From positions 32,001 through 96,000 of IMG/VR virus record IMGVR_UViG_3300045988_159857: a DNA stretch of 64,000 nt; one strand, written 5' to 3'. The notes under the pieces are model-generated. The model worked only from the letters and a program-made list of their open reading frames with translations, did not search any database and was not told where the DNA came from. Shown here piece after piece: positions 10,109 through 63,029 of this stretch (within the stretch, counting starts at the first letter, position 1; each line of letters opens with the position of its first letter). A program made the translations under genes and the position numbers. Source of the stretch: a virus.

Positions 10109-10116
10109 ATATTTAA

Positions 10117-11181: not shown

Positions 11182-11226
11182 ATATAATCTACACTCTTTA
11201 TTTAATGTGTCGAGTGCACAAACACA

Positions 11227-11303: not shown

Positions 11304-11454
11304 ATAATGTTGAGCCAAAGGGCTTTCACCTTTGGGAACAATGGTTGGATTTGCACTGCAGTTGCTTACCAACAGTCTTTCCAGGCGACTAACCATTAAC
11401 TTCAGTTACATTGTTTTTTCATATTAACATATTTTAAGAAATTTTCTTTTCGGT

Positions 11455-11528
11455 CGAAGCTTTGAAAACTCGAATTTCAACCTTTCCCCTGACATAACGG
11501 GGACGTGCTATCCACTACACTAAACTTC
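11455..11528 (-). tRNA. aberrant tRNA-like gene (9-nt anticodon loop, identity undetermined)
   Basis: Acceptor GAAGTTT/AAGCTTC; D-arm GTGT-AGTGGATA-GCAC; T-arm TGAAA-TTCGAGT-TTTCA. The anticodon stem TCCCC/GGGGA encloses GTTATGTCA. Only 1 nt separates the acceptor and D stems. No CCA. Confidence 0.5.
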
Positions 11529-23161: not shown

Positions 23162-23235
23162 TGGCAGGAATAAGTTGATTCGAACAACTACTGCAGCAGT
23201 CAAAGTGCTGTGTGCTACCGTTACACCATACTCCT
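23162..23235 (-). tRNA. tRNA-Gln (anticodon UUG)
   Basis: Acceptor AGGAGTA/TATTCCT; D-arm GTGT-AACGGTA-GCAC; anticodon arm CAGCA-CTTTGAC-TGCTG; T-arm AGTTG-TTCGAAT-CAACT; CCA encoded. Confidence 0.85.
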
Positions 23236-41033: not shown

Positions 41034-41758
41034 AATAACACCTTTCTCTTAATTTGTGTATCCATTACTGTACCATTTATACGACTTAAAGCAGTTTTAT
41101 AATAATTTTCATTTATTTCTATTCCTATGAAATCTATATCCCTATTTAATTCTTTACAAGCAACACCAGTAGTACCACTACCCATAAAAGGGTCTAATAC
41201 TATAAATCCAGGTTTAGTTGAATTACTTAACATACTTTTAACAAATGGTAATGGTTTTATAGTAGGATGATTATATATTTTATTTTCACGATTTATTGGT
41301 GAAATGTATAATTTTTTAGCATCATTATAACACATAGGTTTACAATAAACTCCAGGGGTATAAAAATATAAACAGTACTCTATATCATCTATATATTTAT
41401 TATAATATGTTGGTAAGGCATTTGTTTTATTCCAAAAAAGTATAGTATAATTACATTTATATTTATTAACAAATATGTTCATATATTTAATTATTTGACT
41501 TTTATTGCACCAAACATAAATATTAACATCCTTTAATACTCTTATCATTTCTTCACAAAACAAGTTTATATTAAATGTTTCACAACGTAAAGAATTAAGG
41601 GGTTTTAAACTTTTAGCTAACTTCATTCTTTTATTACAACTTCCAGTAGTATCTTCAGGATTGACATGGACATCATAAGGTGGGTCAGTATATACTAAAT
41701 CGATACTTTTCGAAGGTATATTTTTCAATATATTTATGTAATCGTCATTATATAACAT
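41030..41758 (-). CDS. DNA methyltransferase (N6-A/N4-C, beta class), no cognate nuclease seen
   Basis: Motif IV LVYTDPPYD is N-terminal and motif I VLDPFMGSGTTGVA is C-terminal. Confidence 0.8.
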   Translation of the reverse strand: MLYNDDYINILKNIPSKSIDLVYTDPPYDVHVNPEDTTGSCNKRMKLAKSLKPLNSLRCETFNINLFCEEMIRVLKDVNIYVWCNKSQIIKYMNIFVNKYKCNYTILFWNKTNALPTYYNKYIDDIEYCLYFYTPGVYCKPMCYNDAKKLYISPINRENKIYNHPTIKPLPFVKSMLSNSTKPGFIVLDPFMGSGTTGVACKELNRDIDFIGIEINENYYKTALSRINGTVMDTQIKRKVLF

Positions 41759-48100: not shown

Positions 48101-48568
48101 TTAATCCCCTTCTTTCAATTTAGTCAACAATGTATAGTCGGTGTCCATAAATATTCGCCTTTTTGTTGAAGGTAATTCAAATATTCTATAATTCGAATTA
48201 AGATGTCTCATCCCAACAGACTTCTCTCCGTTTTCTTTTAGCTCAGTAATCGTCTTAGTCGGTATATATAACACTTTATCCTTCTCATATAACCACAACA
48301 CGACACCACTCCTAACACCTTTTATAGATACCTTTTTACAAAGGTTTTCATATTGAGATATGTTACAAAGGGGCAATGAAGCCCCTTTATGTGTCTTACA
48401 TTCAAGATAAAATATATTAGGAAATATAAATCCAATATAGTCTGAAATTTGTTTTATACTTTTATATCCCATTACAACGTCATATAGTCTATCTATTGTG
48501 GCGTTAGGAACTTTCAAAAAATCTTCTTTAAACTTTTTTTCAAAAGTTTTTCCAAAATCTTTAGACAT
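48101..48568 (-). CDS. RecU-like Holliday-junction resolvase
   Basis: FEKKFKEDF..DRLYDV..SDYIGFIF..FYLECKTH..LPLCNISQYE matches the RecU D..E.K core and layout. Confidence 0.6.
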   Translation of the reverse strand: MSKDFGKTFEKKFKEDFLKVPNATIDRLYDVVMGYKSIKQISDYIGFIFPNIFYLECKTHKGASLPLCNISQYENLCKKVSIKGVRSGVVLWLYEKDKVLYIPTKTITELKENGEKSVGMRHLNSNYRIFELPSTKRRIFMDTDYTLLTKLKEGD

Positions 48569-49695
48569 TAGTCAACTACACACTCAGGAATTACATTTGT
48601 AATCCTACCTCTTGTTAAAACAATTGAAGTGTTATTTCCAAAATTGATATTTAAGTACGGTTCGTTACAAGTCTCTAAGGTTGCTTTCAATTCAGGTAAA
48701 TCAAGAATAGCCGTATATGGCTCATCAATATCTAATACTGTGTTATTGTAATTAACAACTTCTTTGTTTTCTTTTTTAACATCATAAATAATTACAGAAT
48801 CTTTTCCAAACTCTAATGTACTGTATGGTTTAACAATATCTCTACTTCCTGACAAAGTGTTGAACAACAACAATCTACTAATAGCTTGTAACAAATACTC
48901 CTTGTTAATATTTATAGAATAAGGATATTCTGCAGTCGCAATACCTCTAATTGCTGATACCGGTACTTTTGAAAGTAAACTATCATCACAAGACAGGATA
49001 GCTGTTAATTTAATATCAGGCGAGGTAAACGAAACTTTTGTTTGAATTATATCTTCGCTAATATTATCATAACCAATTTTCAAATTAACTTTTGAACCGT
49101 CAAACAACTTAAACAACTTAACAAGTCTATCGTTAAACAACAACTTAACTTCCTGAGGAAGATTAAAAGAGTTAACACAAGCACCACTTGTAAATGTTAT
49201 AGCGCCCTTTTCATCAACATAGTACAAACGCTGTACAGGACGAGCTATTGTACCTTTAAGTAATTCCTTACTGTTATATTGAAGAATACTTGTTAATATG
49301 TCACTATCAATTTCAAATTCGTTAGTTACATTCTTAATTTCAATTTCAGGTAACTCGAGAAGTTTATCACCGTCGAAAATCAGTGGAAGTTTATAAGTTC
49401 CATTAGCCACGACTACAACATAATTATCCTTGATATTAAGTTCAACTGTATCCGTTGTTATCTGAGATATAAGTTTGAGGAACAACGTAGCATTTACAGT
49501 GGCGTGAAAATCTACAACTTCTCCAATATCTATCTTAACTTGTGCAAAATACTCTCTATTTGTAACATTCATATAAAGATAATTATCTACAGTTACTAAT
49601 TCAAGAGTTTCAGTAATAGTTGAAAGTGTATTACTATCAACTGCTGTAAGTATGTTTTTACAGGCATTTTGAAGTTTTTCAATTCTAATAATCAT
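48568..49695 (-). CDS. dnaN: DNA polymerase III beta sliding-clamp-like protein
   Basis: 375 aa with a three-domain beta-clamp-like repeat pattern. N-terminus IRIEKLQNACKNILTAVDS. Genomic context with the clamp loader supports the call. Confidence 0.65.
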   Translation of the reverse strand: MIIRIEKLQNACKNILTAVDSNTLSTITETLELVTVDNYLYMNVTNREYFAQVKIDIGEVVDFHATVNATLFLKLISQITTDTVELNIKDNYVVVVANGTYKLPLIFDGDKLLELPEIEIKNVTNEFEIDSDILTSILQYNSKELLKGTIARPVQRLYYVDEKGAITFTSGACVNSFNLPQEVKLLFNDRLVKLFKLFDGSKVNLKIGYDNISEDIIQTKVSFTSPDIKLTAILSCDDSLLSKVPVSAIRGIATAEYPYSININKEYLLQAISRLLLFNTLSGSRDIVKPYSTLEFGKDSVIIYDVKKENKEVVNYNNTVLDIDEPYTAILDLPELKATLETCNEPYLNINFGNNTSIVLTRGRITNVIPECVVD

Positions 49696-49706
49696 CTAGT
49701 TATCTC

Positions 49707-50651
49707 CTAAAATAATTCATTTTTGTGTATATTATTACCACAATACACATAGTTGTTTGCCCAATCCTTACCATAACGAAGATTAAACAATTCTCTCATT
49801 CGTGAGGCTTTAATATCATCGTCAATAAGAAGGTCGTCTAATGTCATTCCCATTTCGTTACAAACATTTTTAACAGCCTCTATAACAGCTGGGGATTGGT
49901 TGAGTACATGTTTATCATCACAAATTTTACGATTTGAGGTAAATAGAGTTTTCTTTCCTATTTGAATTTGTCCAAAAGCGGCAAGCTTTAGCCACGTCGT
50001 ACTGTCGGAACTTGTAAAAGGGAAGTTTTCAAGAATTTTATAAGTCGAAATTCCAAATGCATGAGTCTTGACGTTTGGGTTACTACTATTCTTAATTATT
50101 GTAAAAACTTTTTCAAGCCACGGTTTCCAAGTGCTACTTGGTAAACTTTTGTTTGGTGAAATACCTATGTATTTAATATGACTACCATCTTCGTGTGTAT
50201 ATTCAAGCATATTTTTCAACCACTTGAAATCTTCCTGTTGGTGAAAAACTGGTATTAACTTATCCCTAGATTTAACACGGTCTTTCATATACAGATAATT
50301 TTCCCAACTAAGTTTGGGTGCTTCTAATTGTTGCTCAATAGTTACTTCTTGACCTCTTATACCAGCAATTGTATCGAGTTGGGCGAAAACAGTAGTATAG
50401 TCGTCAATAGAATTAAGAAATTCTATATATTCGTCAACATCTATAGTAACACCTTTAGTATGTGCAGTAAAGGCACCACTATCAATAAATAGATTACATT
50501 TACATTCTGGATGTTCTTTTAAATAGTCAACCCATTCCAAAATATGCTTCTTTTCGGTATACTGTGACAACAATTGATGATATCCAATTTCACGTTTGAA
50601 AGCATCTGTTTCTTTTGTTGTTGTCCCTGCCGCATATAATGTAAACGCCAC
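49707..50651 (-). CDS. dpdA: DpdA-like DNA (7-deazaguanine) transglycosylase
   Basis: 314 aa with FIDSGAFTAH, IPVFHQ, YIGISP and FTSSDSTTW motifs of the Tgt/DpdA fold. It lacks the CxCxxC..H zinc site and the length of tRNA Tgt. Adjacent to queC. Confidence 0.65.
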   Translation of the reverse strand: MAFTLYAAGTTTKETDAFKREIGYHQLLSQYTEKKHILEWVDYLKEHPECKCNLFIDSGAFTAHTKGVTIDVDEYIEFLNSIDDYTTVFAQLDTIAGIRGQEVTIEQQLEAPKLSWENYLYMKDRVKSRDKLIPVFHQQEDFKWLKNMLEYTHEDGSHIKYIGISPNKSLPSSTWKPWLEKVFTIIKNSSNPNVKTHAFGISTYKILENFPFTSSDSTTWLKLAAFGQIQIGKKTLFTSNRKICDDKHVLNQSPAVIEAVKNVCNEMGMTLDDLLIDDDIKASRMRELFNLRYGKDWANNYVYCGNNIHKNELF

Positions 50652-51044
50652 TTACTCACTCTCCTTTAATTTATTTTTTATGTATCTATAGGTTTTATAC
50701 CAATTTATTTTACCCCCAGGAACACTTCTATCATCAACTATAAACAAAGCACATAATTTTCTAGGTTTAGTTTCAATTGAAGCTTCTTCTAAGGTTAGTA
50801 TTGGTAAGTCCCATTTATGAATCATTTTAACAGCATAATCATATCGTTCATCACATCGACATGTCCATAATATAAGAGTTAAGCCAAGTTCTTCAACTAA
50901 TTTTTTAGTATATTTTTCCGCTTTTTTACATAATGTCTTACCGTCTGTTGTTAACGTACCGTCAAAATCAATTCCTACTATTTTTAAGTTTTTCGTATAT
51001 TTCGATAACATCTGGTTTCTGTTTTTCATAATTATTTCCAACAT
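50652..51044 (-). CDS. HAD-superfamily phosphatase-like protein
   Basis: IVGIDFDGTLT (DxDxT) and a later FIVDDR. The 5' end overlaps the queC 3' end, so the start is uncertain. Confidence 0.55.
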   Translation of the reverse strand: MLEIIMKNRNQMLSKYTKNLKIVGIDFDGTLTTDGKTLCKKAEKYTKKLVEELGLTLILWTCRCDERYDYAVKMIHKWDLPILTLEEASIETKPRKLCALFIVDDRSVPGGKINWYKTYRYIKNKLKESE

Positions 51045-51681
51045 AATTCATAAACTTTTCAATTGTTTCAGGGTCAAACTTATACCCATTGTTATAAAAA
51101 GCTGCAAACTTACTTGTGCACGATGTACACGACATACAAGGTTTACCATTTGTTGGATTATAACAACTTACAGTCGCATTGTAAGCTTCTTCAATATTAC
51201 CTCCATTATCAACAAACATCTTTAACAATTCAGTCTTTGTAGTGTCTTTAAAAGGTAATTTTACTACCACAGGACCTTCCCTTGTTTCACTTAATAGATA
51301 TGAAATAACATCTCCAGCTTTTGCTGCAAAGAGCGTTGTCTTGTCATAATGAGTACTTGAACCTGTCGCTCCTAAATAGATTTCGTTACCGTAATGTGCT
51401 GCTAAAGTTACAAAATGTAAATTTCTCAAAGGTAAAAAATAATTCTGGGACGGTCTTTCGTACTCACTTAAATCATAATCAACAACTTTTAATCTTGTTG
51501 TGTCAATTTTACCTTCTTCAACAAGTTTCAACAATTTTTCATACTCTACTTCATTGTTCGCTGTATGTATCCTAACAAACAATATAGTGTCAGGTTTAAT
51601 GAGGTGGTCAATCAACCAACTATCCATTCCACCACTATAAAGTAATACTTTACCTTCAGGAATTTTCAACACTTCGTTCAT
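50968..51681 (-). CDS. queC: 7-cyano-7-deazaguanine (preQ0) synthase
   Basis: PP-loop LLYSGGMDSW and C-terminal Cys cluster SCYNPTNGKPCMSCTSCTSK. Confidence 0.85.
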   Translation of the reverse strand: MNEVLKIPEGKVLLYSGGMDSWLIDHLIKPDTILFVRIHTANNEVEYEKLLKLVEEGKIDTTRLKVVDYDLSEYERPSQNYFLPLRNLHFVTLAAHYGNEIYLGATGSSTHYDKTTLFAAKAGDVISYLLSETREGPVVVKLPFKDTTKTELLKMFVDNGGNIEEAYNATVSCYNPTNGKPCMSCTSCTSKFAAFYNNGYKFDPETIEKFMNYVGNNYEKQKPDVIEIYEKLKNSRN

Positions 51682-52399
51682 ACATATTCTCCTTGTTTAT
51701 AATTAAATGTCTGGTTTCATAGTTTCCGACTTTATGTGCTATAAAAGTTGTTAAAGGAAGAATTATTGCTTCATAACCTGTTTTAAGGATAACTTGTAAA
51801 CAAATCATTGTGACTACTTCCTTAACAGTCATAATAGGATTAAGAACTAAAAATGCTAAAGGTAAGTAAATACAACTATCTACTATCTCACCTACAAAAC
51901 TGGAAAGTATGGCTCTCAACCCAAAACCTTTATGGTCAGTCACTTCGACATGACGTTTTTTCATCTTAGCAAAGATAACATCGTTAGCAAAATCTCCGAA
52001 AACATAAGCTATAATAGAAGCAACACTACAAGCAAAACTACCATTAAGTATCAATTTAAAAGAAGTTGATATTGTTACATAATAATCATTATTAGGTACC
52101 GGAAATTTACTGACAATTGCAAATATTATTATCATTAAAAGGTTACAAGTAAAGGCAATATAACACGTTCTTCTACTCCACTGATAACCGTAAACTTCTG
52201 AAAAGACGTCTGACAATATATAGGTTACAGGAAACAACATCACAGCACTTGTCATACTAAACCCGAAAAAGTTAAATATTCTAGAGGATATAATGTTTGA
52301 AATTAACAATGCGCAGACAAATATAATAGTTAGAATATTTTGAACGGGACTTATATTCTTATTGTCAAGTCCAAATTCTTTTTGTAAAAACTTTAACAT
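51656..52399 (-). CDS. yhhQ: queuosine-precursor transporter (YhhQ/VUT family)
   Basis: Multi-TM protein with LFPVTYILSDVFSEVYGYQWSRR, typical of YhhQ. Confidence 0.75.
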   Translation of the reverse strand: MLKFLQKEFGLDNKNISPVQNILTIIFVCALLISNIISSRIFNFFGFSMTSAVMLFPVTYILSDVFSEVYGYQWSRRTCYIAFTCNLLMIIIFAIVSKFPVPNNDYYVTISTSFKLILNGSFACSVASIIAYVFGDFANDVIFAKMKKRHVEVTDHKGFGLRAILSSFVGEIVDSCIYLPLAFLVLNPIMTVKEVVTMICLQVILKTGYEAIILPLTTFIAHKVGNYETRHLIINKENMYERSVENS

Positions 52400-52455
52400 T
52401 TAATTTTACTCCTTTAATTTTTTATGGTTGGGAAAGGATTACAACCAGATTTTGT

Positions 52456-52791
52456 TTACTCTTTTTCCACTGTTACTGGAAAATGTTTAGCATTTTCAGC
52501 TCTAACGCTTACTTTAAGATATTTTGGTTTATATTCATCTTGGAGGTGTTGATAAACTCTGTCTACAACATCCTCTATAATAAGGTTCTGTCCTTGAATA
52601 TAATTATTAAAAAACTCTTCTTCGTCAAGATAGTCCATCATCACCGTACCAGGGGTAAACTGAACGGTTATATAGGTTGTGTAATAATCATGTCCAAGCG
52701 GACAATAAACTGTAAGAGTTTTATCAAAGGTTACTTTACTTATACCTTGTGTGTGTTCAAACTTAGCCAACTTGTCACCTTCTCTTAACAA
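52456..52791 (-). CDS. QueF-fold (T-fold) protein lacking the QueF NADPH motif
   Basis: VYCPLGHDYYTTYITVQF..MMDYLDEEEFF..LIIEDVV aligns with B. subtilis QueF SLCPKTGQPDFATIYISY..VESKSLKLYL..FHEDCM. The Cys is kept and the E(S/L)K(S/A)hK(L/Y)(Y/F/W) motif is absent. TTG start is uncertain, with an alternative at 52770. Confidence 0.55.
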   Translation of the reverse strand: MLREGDKLAKFEHTQGISKVTFDKTLTVYCPLGHDYYTTYITVQFTPGTVMMDYLDEEEFFNNYIQGQNLIIEDVVDRVYQHLQDEYKPKYLKVSVRAENAKHFPVTVEKE

Positions 52792-52807
52792 TATTATATA
52801 TATATAA

Positions 52808-53062
52808 TCACGAATTACTTCGTGTTGTTTTAATAATATTTATGAAATAATAAACATCTAATACCAATATAATACTATTAGAAATCATTGTACTATAAGC
52901 TAAAAATTTTATAGAATATATCACAAATAAGATAGAAGCCAAACCATTAAACGCCCTCATCAGTAACTGTGTCTTAACAGATTTACAATTAAACGTCATT
53001 GACAAGATAAGTAATATTGTTGCAAAAATTCCAAGACATTCATTAAACAACTTCATCAACAC
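52808..53062 (-). CDS. small 3-TM membrane protein
   Basis: 84 aa with three hydrophobic helices; first gene behind the promoter at 53080..53112. Confidence 0.6.
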   Translation of the reverse strand: MLMKLFNECLGIFATILLILSMTFNCKSVKTQLLMRAFNGLASILFVIYSIKFLAYSTMISNSIILVLDVYYFINIIKTTRSNS

Positions 53063-53079
53063 CTTTCATTTCAATGATT

Positions 53080-53112
53080 AGTATATATTAAATACAAATA
53101 AAATTCAACTAG
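53080..53112 (-). promoter_or_regulatory. SigA-type promoter (family variant CTAGTTGA)
   Basis: CTAG+TTGAAT (53103-53108), 17-nt spacer, TATACT (53080-53085). Confidence 0.55.
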
Positions 53113-54280
53113 TTACAGTGTAATTTTTCAAAATAGTTTTAAGTTGCTCTTCACTAAGTTCTTCATACATAGTTTTTATTTGTTCAAAACTTTTATTAAA
53201 ATCATTATTATTAGTTTCCATCAAATTTTTGAAATTATCTTCTACAATTACAGAAAATTCATCAAGATACCAATTCGTTACACAATATGTGTCAACAGAC
53301 ATTGGAACTGTTGGTATTATATTCTTAGCACTAGTTACCATATCATCAATTAAGTACTCTGAAGCTTTTTCTGAAAATTTTTCAGGTACCTCTATAAGGA
53401 TTTCATCGTGAACAGTATTTATTAGTTTTGCTTTGATATTATGAAGTCTTTCATCACTATAAATTTTTATAAGTGCTAATTTTGTAAGAGTTGCCGCTCC
53501 TCCCTGTACACAAGCATTTACACACTGTCTCTCAGCCTGACTTATAAATCCACCATTGTTTTTAATATCTATTTTATCTTTTATTGCATTTTCTTTGATT
53601 ACATTTATTTGTTTTAGACTTTTAGCTTCAAGTAATTGCTTCATATAAATATCTATTTTAGGATTCACAGTTTTACCAACAAGTCCTTTACAATATAACA
53701 AAGGATTTTCTGATATATTTGTTTTTTCAGATAAATCTTTCAAAGTAAACTTCGGTAATAAAATATCTGGTAATCGTCTTCTTCTACCTACAATGTCTTC
53801 AACATACCCTTTTGTATGTGCCATTTCCATAGTACTATCTATCCATTTTTTAACTGAAGGGAAAGCATTAAAAAATTTGTCTATTATTTCTTGTGCCTCC
53901 TCAGTAGACTTACCTATTTGTTCTCCAACAGACTTAGCACCTCTACCGTACAAAATACCTAAAAGTATACTTTTAGCTAATGTTCTTCTATGAGCTCCTT
54001 CTTTGTTTTTATGTGTCTTATACCCACAAGTAACTTTATTACCTTCGAAAACTATTTCAGTACCTTCAGGATAAAATTCTAGACATTCTTCATAAGGATA
54101 ATTGAACGACTGTGAAGCTATAACTGAATATAGGTCACGCTTTTGTTTATATGCCTCAATCATTCGAGGGTCGTTTGAATAGAAAGCTGTCAAACGAGGT
54201 TCCTGACCACTATAATCTCCGCCAACTATAACATTTTTACATCTTACATTAACACTATTTTTAACATCTTCCAAAGTCAA
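53105..54280 (-). CDS. polA: family A DNA polymerase, C-terminal part (motifs A-C)
   Basis: GGDYSGQEPRL (motif A), RRTLAKSILLGILYG (motif B), VHDEILIE (motif C). TTG start overlaps the stop of the N-terminal ORF. Confidence 0.85.
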   Translation of the reverse strand: MTLEDVKNSVNVRCKNVIVGGDYSGQEPRLTAFYSNDPRMIEAYKQKRDLYSVIASQSFNYPYEECLEFYPEGTEIVFEGNKVTCGYKTHKNKEGAHRRTLAKSILLGILYGRGAKSVGEQIGKSTEEAQEIIDKFFNAFPSVKKWIDSTMEMAHTKGYVEDIVGRRRRLPDILLPKFTLKDLSEKTNISENPLLYCKGLVGKTVNPKIDIYMKQLLEAKSLKQINVIKENAIKDKIDIKNNGGFISQAERQCVNACVQGGAATLTKLALIKIYSDERLHNIKAKLINTVHDEILIEVPEKFSEKASEYLIDDMVTSAKNIIPTVPMSVDTYCVTNWYLDEFSVIVEDNFKNLMETNNNDFNKSFEQIKTMYEELSEEQLKTILKNYTVTS

Positions 54281-55893
54281 ACCTCCTCGTTAACCAATTT
54301 ACAAGTAATTGTATACTTTGTACAAACATTTGTAATAGAAATAACTTCCAATTTACCATTTTTTGACAACACTAGGTCTCCAGAAACAAGTTCAAAAGGT
54401 TTTTTCCATCCATCTATAGTTTCAAGCTCATCATCTTTATCTAAAACTATTTTGTCGTTATCAACCGAATATTTATCATATGTATAATCAGCACAAAACA
54501 TTAACCGAATATTTTTACTTTTTGAAGGGATATTTTGAAGGTTAGGATTATTTGAACTATATCGACCTGTTTGAGCTCCTAATTGATTGAAACTTGCGTG
54601 TAGTCGATTATCTTTTTCTTGAACACATTCAGGTAACTTATCAATATACGTTCCAATCAGCTTTTGGAGTCCTCGCTGTGACAACACTAATTTACACAAG
54701 GGTATATCTATCTGTTTTAGAATGTCTTCTCCAGTTCCCCTTGGACTCTTTTTACTTTTTGGGGGTATAGCTAATACGTCATATAATAATATAGCAAACT
54801 GGGTAGGACTGGTTAATTCTGGAGGTGACTTTAGTTGCTCAGACTTTGAACGTTGGTACGTATATTCACCATTTTTGTTTGGTTTTTTACTTTTCGGTTT
54901 AAATATTGCAGCAGGCGTTTTTCTCCACTCGTTTATTTTATCCTCATATTTTAAAAGTTCTTCTGAAATTTGTTTATTAACTTCATCCTCAAGTTTATGA
55001 TACTTAACACTAAGTCTTTGGGCATATCCTTTGTCAATAGACATTCCTGCGAGTTCCATTTCGGCGGTTACAGTAACTATTGGCATTTCAATGTCGAAGA
55101 ATAACTTCTTTATTCTTGAGTTATCTGGTAAATCCATTTGAACTTTTTGCCATTCATAAAGTTTATATGTCATATAAGGGTCAGTAGCGGCATATAAGGC
55201 AAAAACTTTAGGGTCAACCAAAGCATATTCAAGATTCTTAAATAAATTTTCAATATCATATTTTTCAATTGACGGGTCAATTTTCTGTATATACTGCTCC
55301 TTCAATGATACGTGTTCATTTTCATTAAGAAGTGCAGCGGCTATAATAGTATCCCAATAAATATTAAGGGATAATCCACAAGTACATTTGATAACTTCAT
55401 AGTCAAACTTACCGTTGTGCATAATTATATTAGTATTTGATAATCGACTAAACTCGTGGGCTATCTGTTCTTCCGTTAATTGATTTTCCAGTCTTTCTCT
55501 TGTTTCAGGATTAACATGATTAACTGGAATATAAATGTTTTTCCCACCAGGAGTATAAATACAAGGACCCATTAGCTTACAACTAACGGGTTGTAAGCTA
55601 TTATTTGTCTCAGTGTCAATAGCTATAACACCGTTTGAAATCGCTAAGTTAATATAGTTATGTAAAGTAACTATATCAGTTATTACTTGAGTTTTCTCTT
55701 TGTAAATTCCTAAAATTCTATTTACTTCTTGTTCAATCTCCAAAAGTTGTTGTTTTAAGGACAAAGAACTATTTGATTTAGTCTTTGTCCTTTCACTTCT
55801 TTCTTTTGTGGGATTACTTATTTTTTTTATTATTTTTTTCGCTTTTTCGGGTGTCTTAGGAACAACAAATTCGTCTCCCCACAACGACGTCAT
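54277..55893 (-). CDS. polA: family A DNA polymerase, N-terminal part (3'-5' exonuclease + thumb)
   Basis: Exo motifs IAIDTETN and HNGKFDYEV, then GRYSSNNPNLQNIP. Ends after an about 70-aa insert, just before motif A. Confidence 0.85.
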   Translation of the reverse strand: MTSLWGDEFVVPKTPEKAKKIIKKISNPTKERSERTKTKSNSSLSLKQQLLEIEQEVNRILGIYKEKTQVITDIVTLHNYINLAISNGVIAIDTETNNSLQPVSCKLMGPCIYTPGGKNIYIPVNHVNPETRERLENQLTEEQIAHEFSRLSNTNIIMHNGKFDYEVIKCTCGLSLNIYWDTIIAAALLNENEHVSLKEQYIQKIDPSIEKYDIENLFKNLEYALVDPKVFALYAATDPYMTYKLYEWQKVQMDLPDNSRIKKLFFDIEMPIVTVTAEMELAGMSIDKGYAQRLSVKYHKLEDEVNKQISEELLKYEDKINEWRKTPAAIFKPKSKKPNKNGEYTYQRSKSEQLKSPPELTSPTQFAILLYDVLAIPPKSKKSPRGTGEDILKQIDIPLCKLVLSQRGLQKLIGTYIDKLPECVQEKDNRLHASFNQLGAQTGRYSSNNPNLQNIPSKSKNIRLMFCADYTYDKYSVDNDKIVLDKDDELETIDGWKKPFELVSGDLVLSKNGKLEVISITNVCTKYTITCKLVNEEV

Positions 55894-56705
55894 TAGTAAT
55901 ACCTCGTAGGACGACTAACGGTGGTAGTGGTACCTGTTATATTATTACCGGAAGGTGTAGTATTGTTAATGGGAGAGTTGTTAATGAAAGGTGGTGTAGT
56001 ATTAAACGAGTTTGGGTTAGTAACCGGGGGTGTAACTGTTCCATAATTACTGTTAATTGTGGGAGTAACATTGTTTGTATTACTACTTTCTTTTGAGTCA
56101 TTAAAACTTCCTGTTTCAATAAATTCCTTTAACTCTTCGTAATTCTTATCAAGTACAGCGTTACCGACTGCTTCATACCCTTTAAAAGCATCATCTATCT
56201 TTGGATACAAATCATTATGATAAATTGAAGGGTTACCAAAAAGAATTTCATATTTAGTTGTTTTATCTCCAGGTTTACCGTTTCTACGAATCTTAAAAAT
56301 ACAATCTGACAACGGTCCATACTCCTCGAGAAGAGACATTAACTTCTGTGACATAGACTTTGCAGCTCTACTCCAGACAACAGGAACCGGAACAATTTTA
56401 CCTTCCTCATCCTTAACATAGTTAATCATATGAACATATATTGTCTGTTTCACAGGTAATTCACACTCACAAAAAGGACAATTTGTAACTGGTTGACCGA
56501 TTTCTCTTATACAGTTCACACTACGATACTTACCATCAATCGTAACAGTATGATTAGTTACGATATCAAAGGTTTCAGGACTATCGTGCATGATACGAAC
56601 AATAGCTTCATCACCATCGTTCTTCAATGAAAAGAATTTAACCCTATTATTGTCACTACTTGTAGATGACATTTCATTTAACTGTTGAAAATTTATCTTC
56701 GCCAT
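55893..56705 (-). CDS. phage ssDNA-binding protein candidate (Zn-finger OB type) with N/T/P-rich tail
   Basis: FFSLKNDGDEAIVRIMHD..VNCI..CPFCE..KYEILF pattern. Located between the polymerase and the primase. Confidence 0.5.
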   Translation of the reverse strand: MAKINFQQLNEMSSTSSDNNRVKFFSLKNDGDEAIVRIMHDSPETFDIVTNHTVTIDGKYRSVNCIREIGQPVTNCPFCECELPVKQTIYVHMINYVKDEEGKIVPVPVVWSRAAKSMSQKLMSLLEEYGPLSDCIFKIRRNGKPGDKTTKYEILFGNPSIYHNDLYPKIDDAFKGYEAVGNAVLDKNYEELKEFIETGSFNDSKESSNTNNVTPTINSNYGTVTPPVTNPNSFNTTPPFINNSPINNTTPSGNNITGTTTTVSRPTRYY

Positions 56706-56737
56706 TTTATTTCTCCTTTATATATATTATATTATGT

Positions 56738-56770
56738 ATTTTATATTAAAACTTCTTAATATTCAACTAA
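56738..56770 (-). promoter_or_regulatory. SigA-type promoter (TTAGTTGA family)
   Basis: TTAG+TTGAAT (56761-56766), 17-nt spacer, TAAAAT (56738-56743). The box lies in the last codons of the primase gene. Confidence 0.5.
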
Positions 56771-57706
56771 ATTTAAATTATCAAACTCGGTTTTTGTTAA
56801 ATCGTTAACATCTTTTGTAAAAGGAATTTTTTTACCTGAAACAAAAACATCCTTCCTAATATTTTGTAAAAACCTTTCAGTTCCCTTTTGTCCTGCGGCG
56901 TCTCCGTCAAAACAAAGTACATAATTTCTTATAGGACATTTATTAAGTATTTCATATTGATGGGTAGTTCCTGTACCAAAAAGCCCAATAGCTGGATACC
57001 CCCAAGACCACAAAGTTAAAACATTTATTTGACTTTCCGCTACATAGACTTTTTTGTACCCTTGTTTAATTACTTCGTTTAATAAATATACCGGTTTCTC
57101 AACATCTTTTGGTATATTAAATATTTTTGAATCTACATTTCTTCTAGTTATCATAACTAACCTATTACTACTATCCCAAACAGGGAAAGTTATAGAATTA
57201 GATTTACTGTCAAAACCTATCTTAAAGTAGTCAACAACATTTTTAGATAGTTTCCTTTTCCACATATAAGGATGATAAAAAGCATATTTGTTTAATTCGT
57301 TTTCATTTAGAAATTTATTTTTCTTACATTTATATATGTTTATTTCAGGTAAACATAGATAATTAGAATTATACGAGGTACCAAAGTTTTCTAACAACCA
57401 CTCTTTACCAAAAGCTTCTGTCTCCTCAAAACATTTACCTACAAATTGTGGTAAATTAGCCGTATACCCACAAGTAAAACAATGTACTTTTCCGTACTCA
57501 ACATTAGGGTTGTCTTCACGACAGTAAATATTGCAAGAAGGGTGTCTCTCCATACCATTTTTATGATTAGGACAGGTCACTAAGACATTGTCTCTTTCTA
57601 CCTCTCCAATATCACTTAGTAATCCGTTTTTTAATTCACTTTTAAGTTTTTTAAGAATAACAGGTATAGGAGTATCTATACACTTATTATTTATAATTAA
57701 CTTCAT
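56756..57706 (-). CDS. dnaG: DNA primase (DnaG-type: CHC2 zinc finger + TOPRIM)
   Basis: CPNHKNG..HPSC..HCFTCG, then VAESQINVL..CFDGDAAGQKG. Confidence 0.85.
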   Translation of the reverse strand: MKLIINNKCIDTPIPVILKKLKSELKNGLLSDIGEVERDNVLVTCPNHKNGMERHPSCNIYCREDNPNVEYGKVHCFTCGYTANLPQFVGKCFEETEAFGKEWLLENFGTSYNSNYLCLPEINIYKCKKNKFLNENELNKYAFYHPYMWKRKLSKNVVDYFKIGFDSKSNSITFPVWDSSNRLVMITRRNVDSKIFNIPKDVEKPVYLLNEVIKQGYKKVYVAESQINVLTLWSWGYPAIGLFGTGTTHQYEILNKCPIRNYVLCFDGDAAGQKGTERFLQNIRKDVFVSGKKIPFTKDVNDLTKTEFDNLNLVEY

Positions 57707-58974
57707 TAAAAGACATCATCCTCTAAACAATTATCACTTTCAAACTCATCTTTTAATTTTTCACAAGCTTGTGCATCAGTACCATCATTAGGTAAAAACT
57801 GGAATATACCTTTATCAAAATCACAAACATATTTAAGATGTTTATCATTTACAGAATCTCGAGCTTTGGTGAGATGTAAAGTCAGTACACCATCTTTTTG
57901 TTCAATAAATATAACTATTGTACTGTCTTGTGATATTCGGTCACTTTGTGCTATATTGGCTGTACTTGGAGAATTGTTAAACTCACTACGATTTTGCTGA
58001 GATACAGCTATAATCGGTATTTGTTTCAATACCTGTAAATTTTTCAAATCTCTTGAAATATTTGCAGCTTTTTCAACCGGGTTTTTAGCTTTTCTATCAT
58101 CCTCTAACAATGAGTGTTGGTCAACAAACAATATGTCTAATTTTTCTTTTTCTACAAAAGCTCTGAGTGCCGTAACACATGCCGGACCGTTTATCATAGT
58201 AGGTGTAAGAACCTTAAGAGAACCTTTATACCTTGTTTTAAGGCTATCTATATATTTTTTATACTCACCCTCAACATTTATATTACCTCTTAATAAACTA
58301 CTGTTTGACAAATGGCTTACCAAGGTGTCAAATCTATAACCTACCTTACGTTCACTCATTTCTCCTGAATATAAACCTACTTTTAAACCTTGTTCAAGTG
58401 CTGCAATCGCCATTTTTAACAATATCCAAGATTTACCAACACCAGGTCTTGCAGCTATCGTTGCAAGTTCTTCTGACTTATCCCAACCCCCTATTAAATC
58501 ATCTAATTCATTAAATCCAGTTTTAATGTAATAATGAGAAAAATCTTGACACTTATCTACATAACTATCATAACGACTTGTATCTTGAGTTATGTCAACA
58601 CAATCCAAAGGTACCGCTTTTGATAAGTCGTTTGAAGCGTTCATATAAACCTTCATAGCTTCTTCGGTTTTTCCATTTTCAAGTAAGTGTCTAACAGAGT
58701 TAAAAGTTTTAGCTAAAAATCTGGTATTATAGTCGTTATATAACTCATTTAATAGATAACTTGTCGGTTCATTTACCTGTAATACTTCAAAATCTGGAAA
58801 CTTGTCTAAAAAAGATACTTTATCAGGAATTGTACCGTATTCATTAAGATGTGACTTTATATAATTATACTCATTAGGATAATCACAAAAGTACTCGTCA
58901 CTTAAATTATTAAATAAGATTATTGACGAATCCTTTTTATCAAGTATGACATTTAGAAGTTGTAATTGAACCAT
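57706..58974 (-). CDS. dnaB: replicative DNA helicase (DnaB family)
   Basis: GFNELDDLIGG, Walker A AARPGVGKSW, LFVDQHSLL and AVSQQNR. Confidence 0.9.
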   Translation of the reverse strand: MVQLQLLNVILDKKDSSIILFNNLSDEYFCDYPNEYNYIKSHLNEYGTIPDKVSFLDKFPDFEVLQVNEPTSYLLNELYNDYNTRFLAKTFNSVRHLLENGKTEEAMKVYMNASNDLSKAVPLDCVDITQDTSRYDSYVDKCQDFSHYYIKTGFNELDDLIGGWDKSEELATIAARPGVGKSWILLKMAIAALEQGLKVGLYSGEMSERKVGYRFDTLVSHLSNSSLLRGNINVEGEYKKYIDSLKTRYKGSLKVLTPTMINGPACVTALRAFVEKEKLDILFVDQHSLLEDDRKAKNPVEKAANISRDLKNLQVLKQIPIIAVSQQNRSEFNNSPSTANIAQSDRISQDSTIVIFIEQKDGVLTLHLTKARDSVNDKHLKYVCDFDKGIFQFLPNDGTDAQACEKLKDEFESDNCLEDDVF

Positions 58975-59669
58975 TATATAATACCCCTTTTATCTAAACC
59001 TTTAAACTCTATTTTTTCAGATTTTGTAACAACTCGAGAATAAAGCCTATCCCCAACACCATCCCTTAATTCCTCAGGGCTAAGATTTGAGGTGAATATT
59101 TGACATTTATTGTTATCAATACGATTATTGATAAAACTTAATAAATGTTCATGTTCAAATGAAGTAAGGTTCTTAGTACCAATTTCATCCCAAACAACAA
59201 TATCAGCGTTATAAATATTATGTTTAATATGTTCAATATATTCAACATTTTCCGATATATTGTTTTTTAACTGTATGAAAAAATTTGGTACATTTATAAA
59301 CAAAGCTTTACAACTCATATCACATTTATACCAAATACTGTTAAGATAGGCTTGTATTAGTCTAATCGACCACGCTGTTTTACCATTTCCACAAATATGA
59401 GAATAAATATACAAAGAATTACCGGACTTAACAAAGTCCTCAATATTATTCTCAATATTTTTAAGATGACTAAACTCGATTTTATCCGTTCCGTCAGCAT
59501 CAGTTCTTAAGGGAATATAATTTCGTTGTTTTTCCGTTAATAAGGATTCTTTATAAAAATAATCTAACTTAAAAAGTTTTATACAAAAAGAATTGTCCTC
59601 TAATTTACAATTACCTTTACTAAATTTTTTACAGTTATTGTATAAAAAACAATCTCTAGATAATATCAT
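58974..59669 (-). CDS. helicase-loader ATPase (DnaC/DnaI/IstB-like)
   Basis: P-loop HICGNGKTAW and Walker B IVVWDEIG, next to dnaB. Confidence 0.65.
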   Translation of the reverse strand: MILSRDCFLYNNCKKFSKGNCKLEDNSFCIKLFKLDYFYKESLLTEKQRNYIPLRTDADGTDKIEFSHLKNIENNIEDFVKSGNSLYIYSHICGNGKTAWSIRLIQAYLNSIWYKCDMSCKALFINVPNFFIQLKNNISENVEYIEHIKHNIYNADIVVWDEIGTKNLTSFEHEHLLSFINNRIDNNKCQIFTSNLSPEELRDGVGDRLYSRVVTKSEKIEFKGLDKRGII

Positions 59670-60385
59670 TAAAACACCTCACTGGACAAGTCTTCTAAGT
59701 TAGTAGCAACCTTATTTATAGTTGTATTAACACGATAACTTAATTTATAATTCTTTTCGTAGTTAACAATAGCCCAATGAATATCTTTATAACCATTCAC
59801 GGAAGCTATTTCTAGAATTTTCAAAGCCATATCTAAATCACGATGTGTGTATTCGTCAATAGTTTTCATAGCTACTTCTACCGCTTTTTTAGTCATCCAA
59901 CCAAACTTTATGTAAACAGAATCTATCCACGTACTATAAGCTAATTTTAGTTCTTCATTAGTTACACTGTCAAGTAACTTTTTAAGGTTAAATTTAATAG
60001 ACTCTTCTTTGGTTAAACGTTTATTTTTTCGTTTTGAAACTTTTTGTACTTCTTCTATAAGGACAGAATCCGTTGTACTCATTAACCGTATAAGATTGTC
60101 TAAATTTATTCTTATAAGGTTACTATTTTCGACTCTTTCAAGAATTTCTAACTTTACAAGATTTGTCTCAATACTTAACTGTTCCTCTGTTGTTAATGTT
60201 GTACGTTCCGTTATGTATTCTCTTTTTAAGTCAAAATAACCTTCAGATAATTTATTCTTTTTTATTGCCTTATCGTTTATGTTTAACAATTCAGCTAAAT
60301 AAATAGCTGTATGTAACCCAAAAAGTTGTGCAACTTTATAATTATACGAAACAAGGTTAGCGTTACTAAGCAAATCAATTAACAT
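59669..60385 (-). CDS. possible replication-initiation/organiser protein
   Basis: Sits upstream of the loader and helicase genes. No strong motif. Confidence 0.3.
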   Translation of the reverse strand: MLIDLLSNANLVSYNYKVAQLFGLHTAIYLAELLNINDKAIKKNKLSEGYFDLKREYITERTTLTTEEQLSIETNLVKLEILERVENSNLIRINLDNLIRLMSTTDSVLIEEVQKVSKRKNKRLTKEESIKFNLKKLLDSVTNEELKLAYSTWIDSVYIKFGWMTKKAVEVAMKTIDEYTHRDLDMALKILEIASVNGYKDIHWAIVNYEKNYKLSYRVNTTINKVATNLEDLSSEVF

Positions 60386-60387
60386 AA

Positions 60388-61158
60388 TTACTTCATCTCT
60401 TTTAAGATTTTTTTAAGTCTTATAATATTATACTCCAGTTTTTTCTTCAACATCACAGGAGTAAGATTAACAACATATTCAGTACCTTCTTTAACCTTTT
60501 CAACAGGTAATGAATACCTATTTGCAAATTCATTACAAAAAGTATCGTCAAGTTTTCTTAAATACAATGATAGATTCTTCTCATATGTTTTATTTTTAAG
60601 TATATCATCGTATATAACTGCGTCTATAATAAAAGCTATCATATATTCTTGTGTGTTAAAAAACTTTATAACCATTTCAGTTATTTCGAAGATATTATCG
60701 TCAGTATATTTAGGTATAAATATATCACTATAATCATCTTTTAATGTATCTAAGGATAATGTTTCGCTATTTATTTTTCTATTAAACCGATTAAGTTGTT
60801 GATAAAAAGTTAAGCGATGAGACTCCATAACTCTATTTATAACTTTATCAGGACCATTAACATCATTATAAATACTAGAACCTTCTTTTTCCCAAGGTTT
60901 GCGATTCATTGCATACAATACAGCTATTTCTAACCATTCATGAATATCCTCAGGGGTTGTAACAAGTTTACACCTATAATAAAATTGTGATATTTTATTC
61001 CAATATTTTAACATTATTGCTGACACATAACCGTCTTTTAACGGTCCTTTTGGTAAATCCGCTGCAGTTCTGATTAAATCATTTTTATCTATCGATTTCC
61101 AATCGGGTAAATAACATTCAGCACATTGTGTGTAAATGTCCTTCACTCCCTCTAACAC
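60388..61158 (-). CDS. hypothetical protein (possible sigma-like factor)
   Basis: 256-aa ORF; first gene of the replication operon behind the promoter at 61232..61264. The functional guess is weak. Confidence 0.3.
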   Translation of the reverse strand: MLEGVKDIYTQCAECYLPDWKSIDKNDLIRTAADLPKGPLKDGYVSAIMLKYWNKISQFYYRCKLVTTPEDIHEWLEIAVLYAMNRKPWEKEGSSIYNDVNGPDKVINRVMESHRLTFYQQLNRFNRKINSETLSLDTLKDDYSDIFIPKYTDDNIFEITEMVIKFFNTQEYMIAFIIDAVIYDDILKNKTYEKNLSLYLRKLDDTFCNEFANRYSLPVEKVKEGTEYVVNLTPVMLKKKLEYNIIRLKKILKEMK

Positions 61159-61231
61159 TTACTTTTTCTCCTTTTAATTGCAGATAAGTAGATAAATTTA
61201 ATAAATTCTTTAACTTTTTAATTCTTAATTT

Positions 61232-61264
61232 AGTATATAATAAAATATAAATTTAATCAACTAA
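61232..61264 (-). promoter_or_regulatory. SigA-type promoter (TTAGTTGA family)
   Basis: TTAG+TTGATT (61255-61260), 17-nt spacer, TATACT (61232-61237). Confidence 0.6.
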
Positions 61265-61290
61265 AAAGGGTGTACAATGTACACCCTTTC
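61262..61290 (-). terminator. rho-independent terminator fused to the promoter box
   Basis: 11-bp stem AAAGGGTGTAC/GTACACCCTTT (61265-61275/61279-61289). The U-tract continues as TTTTTAGTTGA. Confidence 0.7.
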
Positions 61291-61298
61291 TCTAATAG

Positions 61299-61925
61299 TT
61301 ATTTACGAATCAAATCATAAAATTCAGAACGTAGAGCAGGGTTTGTTTTGAAATGTCCCCTTAAAGCGGCTGTCCTTGTCACTGTCCCGGGTTTCTTGAC
61401 ACCTCGCATAGTCATACAGGTATGTTCCCCTTCAATAACGACAATAATATTGTCAGTATTAAGAATTTTACTTAATACCTCTGCAATATCAGTTCCAAGT
61501 CTTTCTTGAAGTTGAGGTCTTTTTGCACACATCTCTGCTACACGGGCTATCTTTGATAAACCAATTACCTTACCGTTGGGAATATATCCTACCGAAACAG
61601 TTGCATTAACCATAGGAAGAAGATGGTGTTCACACATTGAGTAAATCGGGATATGTCCTTCAACGACTAAGTCTCCACTTTCAACGTCCTCAAAACAAAC
61701 ATCGAATTTTTTAGCAATTTCGTCGTTTGTATAATCAAGTCCTTCAAAGATTTCTTTCCAAGCTTTATAAAAACGATGTGGCGTTTTTACCAAACCTTCT
61801 CGGTTAGGGTCTTCACCTATACACACAAGCATATTTCTAACACAAGTTTCAAAAATATCTTCAACAGACCCGTTCTTGTTTATGTTTTTTATTTCTTCTC
61901 TGTTAAGTGTTTCGTCGGTCCTCAT
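61299..61925 (-). CDS. folE: GTP cyclohydrolase I
   Basis: SMCEHHLLPM, VIEGEHTCM and a GLSK.ARV pattern. Confidence 0.9.
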   Translation of the reverse strand: MRTDETLNREEIKNINKNGSVEDIFETCVRNMLVCIGEDPNREGLVKTPHRFYKAWKEIFEGLDYTNDEIAKKFDVCFEDVESGDLVVEGHIPIYSMCEHHLLPMVNATVSVGYIPNGKVIGLSKIARVAEMCAKRPQLQERLGTDIAEVLSKILNTDNIIVVIEGEHTCMTMRGVKKPGTVTRTAALRGHFKTNPALRSEFYDLIRK

Positions 61926-61926
61926 A

Positions 61927-62589
61927 TTAAACTCCTCTCATATCAACAGGCCAAATAAATTTATGCAGCTGTAACTGCATTCTAATATCATTGAGTGAAT
62001 GAAATTGTAGATATTCTACAATTTCCTTTGGTTCAATATCACCAAAAATAGGACTTACAAATATCTGACAAACAGGATTATATGTTGTAACTATTGATTT
62101 CATCTGTTCGAGGTCTTCTTTGTTCCCTACAACGAATTTAAAAACATCCTTTGGTCTAACAAAACTTAAATTTTCAACTAACATTTTATCAGCCATTCCA
62201 GATGAGTGTGACTTCCAGTCAACAGTATACATAAGATTATCAAGTAAGTGAACAGGTAATTTATTAGACAATTCATTTATTGATAAACTTCCATTTGTTT
62301 CAATATTTACTTCATAACCATTCGTCAAAAGTTCTTTAACAAGTACATCAACATCTTTATGGATAAGAGGTTCTCCCCCTGTTAATGTTACCTTTTTACA
62401 TTTATAACCATTAACAGCGTTAATTATTTCTTCTATTGACATTTCAGTATAATCGTTATTCGTAAAAGCATAAACTGAATCGCAATAAGAACATCTAAGA
62501 TTACAACCGTAAAGTCTGATGAATGTTGCTAAATAACCGGCTCTTGAGCCTTCTCCTTCTATACTATTGAATATTTCAACTACTTTCAT
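61927..62589 (-). CDS. queE: 7-carboxy-7-deazaguanine synthase (radical SAM)
   Basis: FIRLYGCNLRCSYCDS and TLTGGEPL. Confidence 0.85.
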   Translation of the reverse strand: MKVVEIFNSIEGEGSRAGYLATFIRLYGCNLRCSYCDSVYAFTNNDYTEMSIEEIINAVNGYKCKKVTLTGGEPLIHKDVDVLVKELLTNGYEVNIETNGSLSINELSNKLPVHLLDNLMYTVDWKSHSSGMADKMLVENLSFVRPKDVFKFVVGNKEDLEQMKSIVTTYNPVCQIFVSPIFGDIEPKEIVEYLQFHSLNDIRMQLQLHKFIWPVDMRGV

Positions 62590-63029
62590 TTAATTCCTCC
62601 AATTTTAGATATAGCAATATTATTTTCAGTTTCCTGAACCGCTACAGAAATTACTTTACACTTTTCATCAATTTCTTTAAGTTTTGTTTCAAGTATTTCT
62701 CTAAATACTTTTGACATCCATTCCGCTGTTGGGTTATCGTCAACAATGTGTACTTTTTTACAGTTAGCAAAAATTACTGAAGCTATAGGGTCATTAGATT
62801 TAAGAATACATGAATGGTCATAAACATTCTCAATATTTTCTCTGATAACTTTTTTCAACAACTTGAAATCAATTACCATACCAGCGTCATTTAATTCATC
62901 TCTACCAACAACTACTGTTACCTTATATGAATGTCCGTGAAGATTATTCCTACACTCTTCAGAATATGTATTGACATCATATAGTCTATGAGCTGCTTCA
63001 AAAGATATTTTAGTTTCAACTGAATACAT
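62586..63029 (-). CDS. queD: 6-carboxy-5,6,7,8-tetrahydropterin synthase
   Basis: FEAAHRL..LHGHSYKV..AEW motifs of the PTPS/QueD family. Confidence 0.85.
   Translation of the reverse strand: MYSVETKISFEAAHRLYDVNTYSEECRNNLHGHSYKVTVVVGRDELNDAGMVIDFKLLKKVIRENIENVYDHSCILKSNDPIASVIFANCKKVHIVDDNPTAEWMSKVFREILETKLKEIDEKCKVISVAVQETENNIAISKIGGIK

Follow-up and report, generated by a model that had tools for sequence, protein, structure and literature searches.

Gene content of the 7-deazaguanine locus

The viral record IMGVR_UViG_3300045988_159857 of IMG/VR contains, within its positions 32,001 to 96,000, a set of genes for the synthesis of 7-deazaguanine bases and, as proposed below, for their insertion into the DNA of the phage itself. 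This 64-kb stretch is referred to as the window, and coordinates are counted from its first letter. All long open reading frames (ORFs) in the window are on the minus strand, and the G+C content is ~30%. The genes of interest form two blocks, both on the minus strand. The first (61299-63029) encodes FolE, QueE, and QueD, while the second (49707-53056) encodes a protein with three transmembrane segments (3-TM), a T-fold protein, the transporter YhhQ, QueC, a haloacid dehalogenase (HAD) phosphatase, and a protein with the fold of tRNA-guanine transglycosylase (TGT). Located between them are a family-A DNA polymerase (PolA) present as two ORFs, SSB, primase, DnaB, a DnaC-like loader, and two genes of unknown function. 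These identifications agree with the initial annotation, in which two clusters bracket the replisome genes. The features of the two blocks and the adjacent sliding clamp gene are as follows:

62586..63029, minus strand: QueD (6-carboxytetrahydropterin synthase), first gene of its block; PF01242 E=7e-27, phrog_2389 E=1e-31
61927..62589, minus strand: QueE (7-carboxy-7-deazaguanine synthase, radical SAM, clostridial type); TIGR03963 278 bits against a cut-off of 260, phrog_2076 E=1e-41
61299..61925, minus strand: FolE (GTP cyclohydrolase I); PF01227 E=1e-65, TIGR00063 205 bits against a cut-off of 182
52808..53056, minus strand: 3-TM membrane protein, putatively of the SemiSWEET/YgjV/PnuC superfamily; 55 representative clusters, assigned through Pfam matches of relatives
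52456..52770, minus strand: QueF-L-like T-fold protein, 104 aa, TTG start; catalytic Cys and Glu kept, NADPH motif missing
51656..52399, minus strand: YhhQ/COG1738 queuosine-precursor (preQ0/preQ1) transporter; PF02592 E=1e-33, TIGR00697 81.7 bits against a cut-off of 50.95
50968..51681, minus strand: QueC (7-cyano-7-deazaguanine synthase), divergent; PF06508 E=7e-15, 55.5 bits against 22
50652..51011, minus strand: small capless HAD phosphatase (BT0820-like); NF046079 E=2.5e-10, PDB 2obb E=6e-4
49707..50651, minus strand: predicted DpdA (DpdA1-type DNA guanine transglycosylase), 314 aa; phrog_887 E=6e-48
48568..49695, minus strand: sliding clamp (DnaN-like), context gene directly downstream of DpdA; phrog_947 E=1e-12

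The full pathway from GTP to preQ0 (7-cyano-7-deazaguanine), which had been claimed from the sequence, was recovered, with FolE, QueE, QueD, and QueC all matching family models at or near the coordinates first annotated and on the minus strand. QueC scored below the NCBIfam equivalog cut-off (37.8 vs. 150 bits), so we regard it as a divergent member of its family. It has the PP-loop motif SGGMDS at residues 16-21, and its zinc cluster (C-x8-C-x2-C-x2-C) aligns to that of the QueC structures 2pg3 and 3bl5. Judging from family membership, FolE, QueD, QueE, and QueC would convert GTP to preQ0, and YhhQ would provide a second supply by taking up external preQ0 or preQ1. Precursor transporters have been found in phages before, namely QueT in Streptococcus phage Dp-1 and YhhQ in Pantoea phage Vid5.

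A predicted DNA guanine transglycosylase of the DpdA1 kind

The TGT-fold protein is, as far as homology can tell, a phage DpdA of the DpdA1 kind, its subfamily having been set by comparison with the proteins of phages such as Dp-1, SHIN8, and phiSM. Over the full length, its identity to the Dp-1 DpdA is 41% (tblastn, E=2e-69), and the DpdA of Bacillus phage Flasso also reaches 41%. More distant tblastn matches were found in Seuratvirus SHIN8 (~28%, E=3e-19) and Cellulophaga phage phiSM (33%). The DNA of Dp-1 has 2'-deoxy-7-aminomethyl-7-deazaguanine (dPreQ1) at ~1.7% of G, and the Dp-1 protein is catalogued under DpdA and not DpdA2 (PMC6884629). No Pfam TGT (PF01702) or NCBIfam match to the window protein was found, even at E<=10. 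Single-sequence and profile searches against PDB returned only noise, such that a fold comparison was needed. With the AlphaFold model (pLDDT 90.7) as the query, the top matches in Foldseek were human, bacterial, and archaeal TGT, including arcTGT (E=2e-8 to 1e-6, TM-score ~0.6).

Four residues, namely D57 (in FIDSGAF), D93, H137, and D216 (in SSDSTTW), are invariant among 28 members of the clade together with Dp-1, Flasso, SHIN8, and phiSM. The catalytic set of the bacterial enzyme bDpdA consists of D95, D130, H181, and D256, among which D95 and D256 are essential (PMC10164549). Based on motif and order only, D57/D93/H137/D216 may correspond to these four. H137 and H197 are both invariant in the DpdA alignment, and a conserved His is a feature that has no counterpart in DpdA2. 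The only invariant Cys in the clade is C50; with no conserved Cys cluster, the protein has no counterpart of the zinc site found in TGT and bDpdA. Taken together, the alignments, models, and Foldseek searches uphold the earlier description of a protein that has the FIDSGAF and SSDSTTW motifs and the TGT fold but is missing the zinc site and the length of TGT.

The placement of this protein as a DpdA or as a tRNA-modifying TGT was among the tests proposed for the locus, and its nearest homologues proved to be DpdA proteins from phages in which modified DNA has been measured. The alternative holds that these genes serve tRNA, either by supplying queuosine precursors for a host TGT or for the phage tRNA-Asn(GUU), with the TGT-fold protein as a tRNA enzyme. 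The window does have a tRNA-Asn(GTT) gene and a tRNA-like gene called as His, and both YhhQ and the preQ0 pathway double as components of the queuosine pathway. However, the missing Pfam TGT match, the missing zinc subdomain, and the length of just 314 aa (compared with ~370-390 aa for TGT) deprive this alternative of its defining features. Moreover, the gene for the TGT-fold protein is located between QueC/HAD and the sliding clamp inside the replication module. Given these points, we consider a role in tRNA modification highly improbable.

Phages 9g and CAjan had been named as example systems, but the closest known system is instead that of Dp-1 and Bacillus phage Flasso. The Dp-1 cluster contains QueF, QueC, QueD, QueE, FolE, QueT, and DpdA, and the Flasso cluster is similar. 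In addition to the DpdA identity and the catalytic residues, the window has in common with these two phages a full preQ0 pathway, a precursor transporter, a Gram-positive host (predicted in our case; see below), and a DpdA gene beside those for the sliding clamp, RecU, a RecA-like protein, and the clamp loader. Several differences were also found. The QueF proteins of Dp-1 and Flasso are canonical, have the NADPH motif, and are 73-76% identical to Bacillus subtilis QueF, whereas the window encodes an NADPH-less T-fold protein. The transporter is YhhQ in the window and the energy-coupling factor (ECF) component QueT in the two phages, and the HAD and 3-TM genes are absent from both phages. Furthermore, the QueC proteins are barely alignable, and the gene cluster in the window is split by replisome genes.

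With the DpdA1 proteins of Queuovirinae (9g and CAjan/Seuratvirus) and bDpdA of Salmonella Montevideo, for which a structure has been solved, the window DpdA shares the TGT-like TIM barrel, the DSG...D...H...DS set, and, presumably, the base-exchange mechanism. Compared with these, however, its identity is only ~28%, and bDpdA requires DpdB and has a structural zinc site, neither of which applies to the window DpdA. In 9g, 2'-deoxyarchaeosine (dG+) is made with Gat-QueC.

The genes directly downstream of DpdA in the window are those for the sliding clamp and RecU. Adjacency of dpdA and a clamp or processivity-factor gene is seen in many DpdA1 phages, including the window (48568-50651), Dp-1, Flasso, SHIN8 (in which the neighbor is a processivity-factor gene), L001, L002, L009, and most metagenomic loci. 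This arrangement may reflect a coupling of base exchange to the replisome.

Bases of the 7-deazaguanine type in DNA block many restriction enzymes, as well as Cas9 in vitro, and have practical appeal in phage therapy and wherever DNA should withstand nucleases. Our main reading, to which we assign a probability of roughly 0.8, is that a Dp-1-like (DpdA1-type) system swaps some guanines in the phage's own DNA for a 7-deazaguanine. The core of this system is of an already known kind, namely, DpdA1-type modification with de novo precursor synthesis and salvage. By comparison with tested homologous systems, dpdA would share a transcript with the genes for the sliding clamp and recombination, and its product would insert the deazapurine in place of G in the double-stranded DNA of the phage through the double-displacement mechanism of TGT and DpdA. 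The modification would then shield the phage DNA from restriction enzymes. The initial annotation had proposed that the phage hypermodifies its own guanines during replication. The first part of this proposal is favored by the DpdA1 homology and the conserved catalytic residues. The timing is not, because insertion by DpdA is described as a post-replicative base exchange and not as incorporation during synthesis (PMC10516641).

In bDpdA, the loop GGMV reads the 7-substituent of the base (PMC10164549). The corresponding loop in the window DpdA is 'GISPNKS', and that of its clade is of the type 'GIS(P/C)(N/S)K'. Other loop types are 'GGMVG', which is the preQ0 type found in Seuratvirus and several loci from metagenome-assembled genomes (MAGs), and 'GISPAND', which is found in Dp-1, Flasso, and phiSM. 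A strict correlation between loop type and accessory genes was considered and rejected, as both a T-fold fusion (L034) and a HAD gene (L035) occur with 'xND' loops.

The T-fold protein, its partners, and the final base

The gene initially annotated as "QueF-fold" does encode a T-fold protein, but the QueF part of that label could not be maintained, given that the NADPH motif is missing and that QueF-L is nearest by both profile and fold. Its start was also corrected to a TTG at 52770, which is located behind a GAAGGTGA ribosome-binding site and is indicated by the homologues as well. Models of the QueF family barely registered this protein (PF14489, E=0.05, 14 vs. 27.3 bits; TIGR03139, E=0.0015, 18 vs. 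87 bits). A profile of its own family searched against PDB matched QueF-L 5jyx at E=5e-4 and B. subtilis QueF at E=0.12. Searching with the AlphaFold model (pLDDT 83), Foldseek returned QueF-L chains of 5jyx/5k0p as the top 13 matches (E ~1e-5, TM-score 0.7-0.85), with QueF next and other T-fold enzymes after it.

All 121 family members have the thioimide-forming Cys and the T-fold Glu, and this Cys, located in (F/Y)CPLG, aligns with Cys21 in SVCPIS of 5jyx. The NADPH motif E(S/L)K(S/A)hK(L/Y)(Y/F/W) defines QueF and is kept in all previously studied phage QueF proteins (PMC10516641). With either a strict or a loose regular expression, it was found in none of these 121 members, while the B. 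subtilis control was positive. At the position of this motif, the T-fold protein of the window reads MMDYLDEEEFF. With archaeal QueF-L, the archaeosine synthase (Pyrobaculum calidifontis, 5jyx/5k0p), the protein has in common a single T-fold module of similar length (about 105-109 aa), the thioimide Cys, a Glu at the HE position, and the lack of the NADPH motif. Unlike QueF-L, its family has an invariant motif of its own (MMDYLDEE-type, D46-Y47), occurs in phages, often as two paralogues, and in one lineage is fused to a membrane domain. The substrate would differ as well, being DNA or the free base instead of the tRNA used by QueF-L.

The T-fold family consists of 158 clusters, all of which are metagenomic, with size classes of ~104, ~122, and ~124 aa. 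No homologues were found in 50,697 GenBank phage records (tblastn, E<=1), and none of the 185,579 species genomes scanned yielded a relative. Close copies are labeled "archeaosine synthase" in nr or "QueF" in IMG, both being automatic annotations. Canonical QueF and the T-fold protein are mutually exclusive among loci L001-L032, with QueF in Dp-1, Flasso, and phiSM, and the T-fold protein in L003-L006 and L016. In the window, our searches found no second T-fold protein, canonical QueF, or QueT.

Many large contigs carry two T-fold paralogues, while the window has one. Across many related large phages, two or three paralogous NADPH-less T-folds were observed, all with the invariant Cys; examples are located at 11137-11511 in L003, 8342-8731 and 9528-9905 in L006, and 7670-8008 in L016. 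This multiplicity hints at hetero-oligomeric tunnels.

In QueF-L, preQ0 in the nucleic acid is converted to the formamidine with free NH4+, with a thioimide detectable at 376 nm (PMC5485725). By analogy, the invariant Cys of the T-fold protein would capture the preQ0 nitrile as a thioimide, which, as the NADPH site is missing, would be resolved without reduction. The product of this step would most likely be a formamidine, giving dG+. For the final base of the proposed DpdA1-type modification, our first guess is therefore dG+, with 2'-deoxy-7-cyano-7-deazaguanine (dPreQ0) or 2'-deoxy-7-amido-7-deazaguanine (dADG) as the alternatives.

Several observations weigh against this QueF-L-like assignment and the step derived from it. 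The position of Asp28 in QueF-L is an invariant Tyr in the ungapped alignment, and the Asp/Glu found two residues before it, in a shorter hairpin, is not invariant across paralogues. Identity to QueF-L is 15-17%, and the profile E-value (5e-4) is modest. Earlier "QueF-L" calls made for phage proteins by HHpred turned out to be QueF (PMC6884629), and for the T-fold protein of the window this kind of confusion is excluded only through the missing NADPH motif. The chemistry of QueF-L does not proceed on free preQ0 (PMC5485725), and the 3-TM/T-fold fusion in L034 argues for work of the T-fold protein at the membrane on the free base. Finally, the 64 kb seen here are part of a genome of ~115-125 kb, and QueF, ArcS, or Gat-QueC could be located outside of the window.

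The 3-TM protein that bears on one of these points has no Pfam match in the window copy. Among 43 relatives scanned against Pfam, the models matched were Imp-YgjV (20 relatives), POPDC TM region (24), MtN3_slv (6), and NMN transporter (2). From these matches, it may be a SemiSWEET/YgjV-like half-transporter or a membrane anchor. Its gene precedes the T-fold gene in the window and in L003, and in L034 the two are fused in frame as a single 186-aa protein, found on four contigs.

These arrangements bring up an explanation in which the T-fold and 3-TM proteins, possibly with YhhQ, capture or process free preQ0, imported or newly made, at the membrane, for example by trapping it covalently or hydrating it to the amide ADG; DpdA would then insert preQ0 or ADG, leaving dPreQ0 or dADG in the DNA instead of dG+. 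The adjacency and the in-frame fusion both fit with this, although the fusion occurs in one lineage only. The DpdA loop 'GISPNKS' is unlike the preQ0-type 'GGMVG' and unlike the 'GISPAND' of QueF-encoding phages. The T-fold family is uniformly acidic (median isoelectric point ~5), similar to B. subtilis QueF that acts on the free base. However, isoelectric point was rejected as a test of DNA versus free base since the QueF-L fragment available for comparison is acidic too. Moreover, no T-fold enzyme is known as a nitrile hydratase or carrier, and it would be wasteful for a hydratase to undo half of what QueC does. On balance, we view this membrane-based explanation as possible yet somewhat doubtful.

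Another explanation has dPreQ1 as the final base, as in Dp-1, with the T-fold protein still acting as a preQ0 reductase but taking the hydride from another donor or partner in place of the canonical NADPH site. Dp-1 being the closest characterized phage is consistent with this. In L034, a zinc-type NAD(P) alcohol dehydrogenase is encoded between QueC and DpdA (9038-10000), next to the T-fold fusion, such that a two-component reductase is conceivable in that locus. In the window, however, neither a homologue of alcohol dehydrogenase or short-chain dehydrogenase/reductase (SDR) nor a canonical QueF was found. The NADPH motif is missing in every T-fold family member, and the DpdA loop (SPNKS) differs from the SPAND of Dp-1, Flasso, and phiSM. 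These points make a dPreQ1 product unlikely.

The slot beside dpdA is variable among the relatives. SDR and GNAT genes are found in L033 (8607-10000) and L011, while L035 (10938-13414) has a TAGT/GT2-like glycosyltransferase, a phosphoribosyltransferase (PRTase)-like protein, and a HAD protein. The window has no such glycosyltransferase, and searches of it for a dehydrogenase (alcohol dehydrogenase or SDR), GNAT, or PRTase found none. This variation suggests a diversifying hypermodification chemistry.

The HAD phosphatase occupies this slot in the window. The gene itself stands as initially annotated, but its start is most likely at 51011 (119 aa), as in the homologues, and not at 51044. Its motifs DFDGT, LILWT, K, and VDDR align to those of PDB 2obb, and its NF046079 score (40.8 bits) is far below the cut-off of 165. 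The nearest structure is BT0820, a protein of unknown function. The HAD start overlaps the QueC end (by 44 nt in the window), an arrangement shared by L003, L004, L006, and L035; at the other end, the gene abuts the start of DpdA. HAD genes are present within the cluster in L003-L008, L013, and L035, including directly upstream of DpdA in L007 and L008. In isolated phages, the only homologues are SPO1 gp30.2 and its relatives, at ~30% identity. We also considered a toyocamycin-like PRTase/phosphatase pair, and rejected it; a PRTase-like gene is found near HAD in L035 and L007, not in the window, and Pfam gave no support. Judging from conserved linkage, HAD, which appears to be translationally coupled to QueC, and the 3-TM protein, which is linked to the T-fold protein, are probably both clade-specific helpers.

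To our knowledge, the phage systems characterized to date all finish preQ0 via QueF, Gat-QueC, ArcS, DpdM, or DpdN, and we know of no experimental description in phages of a T-fold enzyme with thioimide chemistry that has lost its NADPH site. In our data, such NADPH-less T-fold proteins are confined to uncultivated phages and are linked to a phosphatase and a membrane protein. The suggestion that the accessory set is the part that could be new is thus in line with our comparisons, in which the T-fold, HAD, and 3-TM genes all differ from those of the known systems. We tentatively raise the possibility that a large clade of uncultivated phages (human-associated, gut, and rumen) uses an undescribed finishing module that leads to a 7-deazaguanine base or route outside the eight catalogued, though the odds are against it. 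The components of such a module would be the NADPH-less T-fold protein (often two paralogues), the QueC-coupled HAD, and a SemiSWEET-like membrane partner, and a DpdA with the new 7-substituent loop 'GISPNKS' would insert or read the base. The product could be dG+, by a QueF-L-type route for which no bacteriophage example has been demonstrated, or else an adduct (amidine or amide) with another nucleophile. If true, there would be more routes to DNA hypermodification and a wider range of reactions in the QueF/QueF-L family. If the product is plain dPreQ0 or dG+, this phage would be one more member of a known defense-evasion system.

Synteny and genome setting

The module of T-fold, YhhQ, QueC, HAD, and DpdA genes is kept in metagenomic relatives, in which DpdA is 62-68% identical to that of the window. 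In L004, the genes form a single contiguous run of PolA, QueD, QueE, FolE, T-fold, YhhQ, QueC, HAD, DpdA, and clamp, which indicates that the two-part arrangement in the window is a local rearrangement and not a functional feature. Near-identical copies (95-99%) are found on contigs reaching ~125 kb, as well as on a third-party annotation (TPA) Caudoviricetes record with the proteins DAG27893.1 and DAG27895.1, and from these lengths the window shows roughly half of the genome. A megablast search of the region against the 50,697 phage records gave no match, and hence no close cultured relative.

The family models support the QueD-QueE-FolE block, while the claim that this operon has its own promoters is weak and could not be established, as the promoter scan gave results near chance. 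Upstream of QueD, there is a terminator-like hairpin (63279-63255) and two promoter-like sites matching at 10 of 12 positions. Across the region, 105 promoter-like sites were counted, compared with 83 +/- 9 expected from shuffled sequences, which is a slight excess only.

The two ORFs of the family-A DNA polymerase overlap (53105-54280 and 54277-55893, minus strand), and the break is located between 'RLMFCA' and motif A 'DYSGQEPR'. There are ~65 extra residues at the end of the N-terminal part and ~17 at the start of the C-terminal part. The same split is found in L008 (3350-6069), while the polymerases of L003, L004, and L006 are intact (827-844 aa). An N6/N4 DNA methyltransferase gene (41030-41758, minus strand; PF01555, E=3e-27) is also located within the replication module, and through it the phage probably modifies its DNA in a second, independent way.

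Nine tRNA genes were found at 9539-11528 and 23162-23235, with Asn(GTT) among them. One of them, at 11455-11528, was called tRNA-His (anticodon ATG) by ARAGORN and has an irregular-looking anticodon loop. Beside the tRNA cluster, the segment 15077-20917 encodes an ATP-dependent DNA ligase, a P-loop kinase (AAA_33, PNK-like), an RNA ligase (phrog_562), and a metallophosphatase, and looks like a module for tRNA or nucleic-acid repair.

An endolysin (GH25 with CW_7 repeats and LysM) and an anaerobic ribonucleotide reductase (NrdD) are encoded at 24206-25288 and 27495-29189. This combination points to a Gram-positive anaerobe as the host. Host assignment from MAG bin labels was rejected, as the labels are mixed (Lachnospira, Acholeplasmatales, Bacilli, and Prevotella) and the bins probably contain mis-binned phage contigs.

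Among the relatives, locus L007 (10001-12133) is part of a 298-kb metagenomic contig. Its DpdA and clamp genes have in-frame stops, yet both align end to end with the proteins of the window. A neighboring gene has eight stops under translation table 11. These patterns suggest a phage with a reassigned stop codon.

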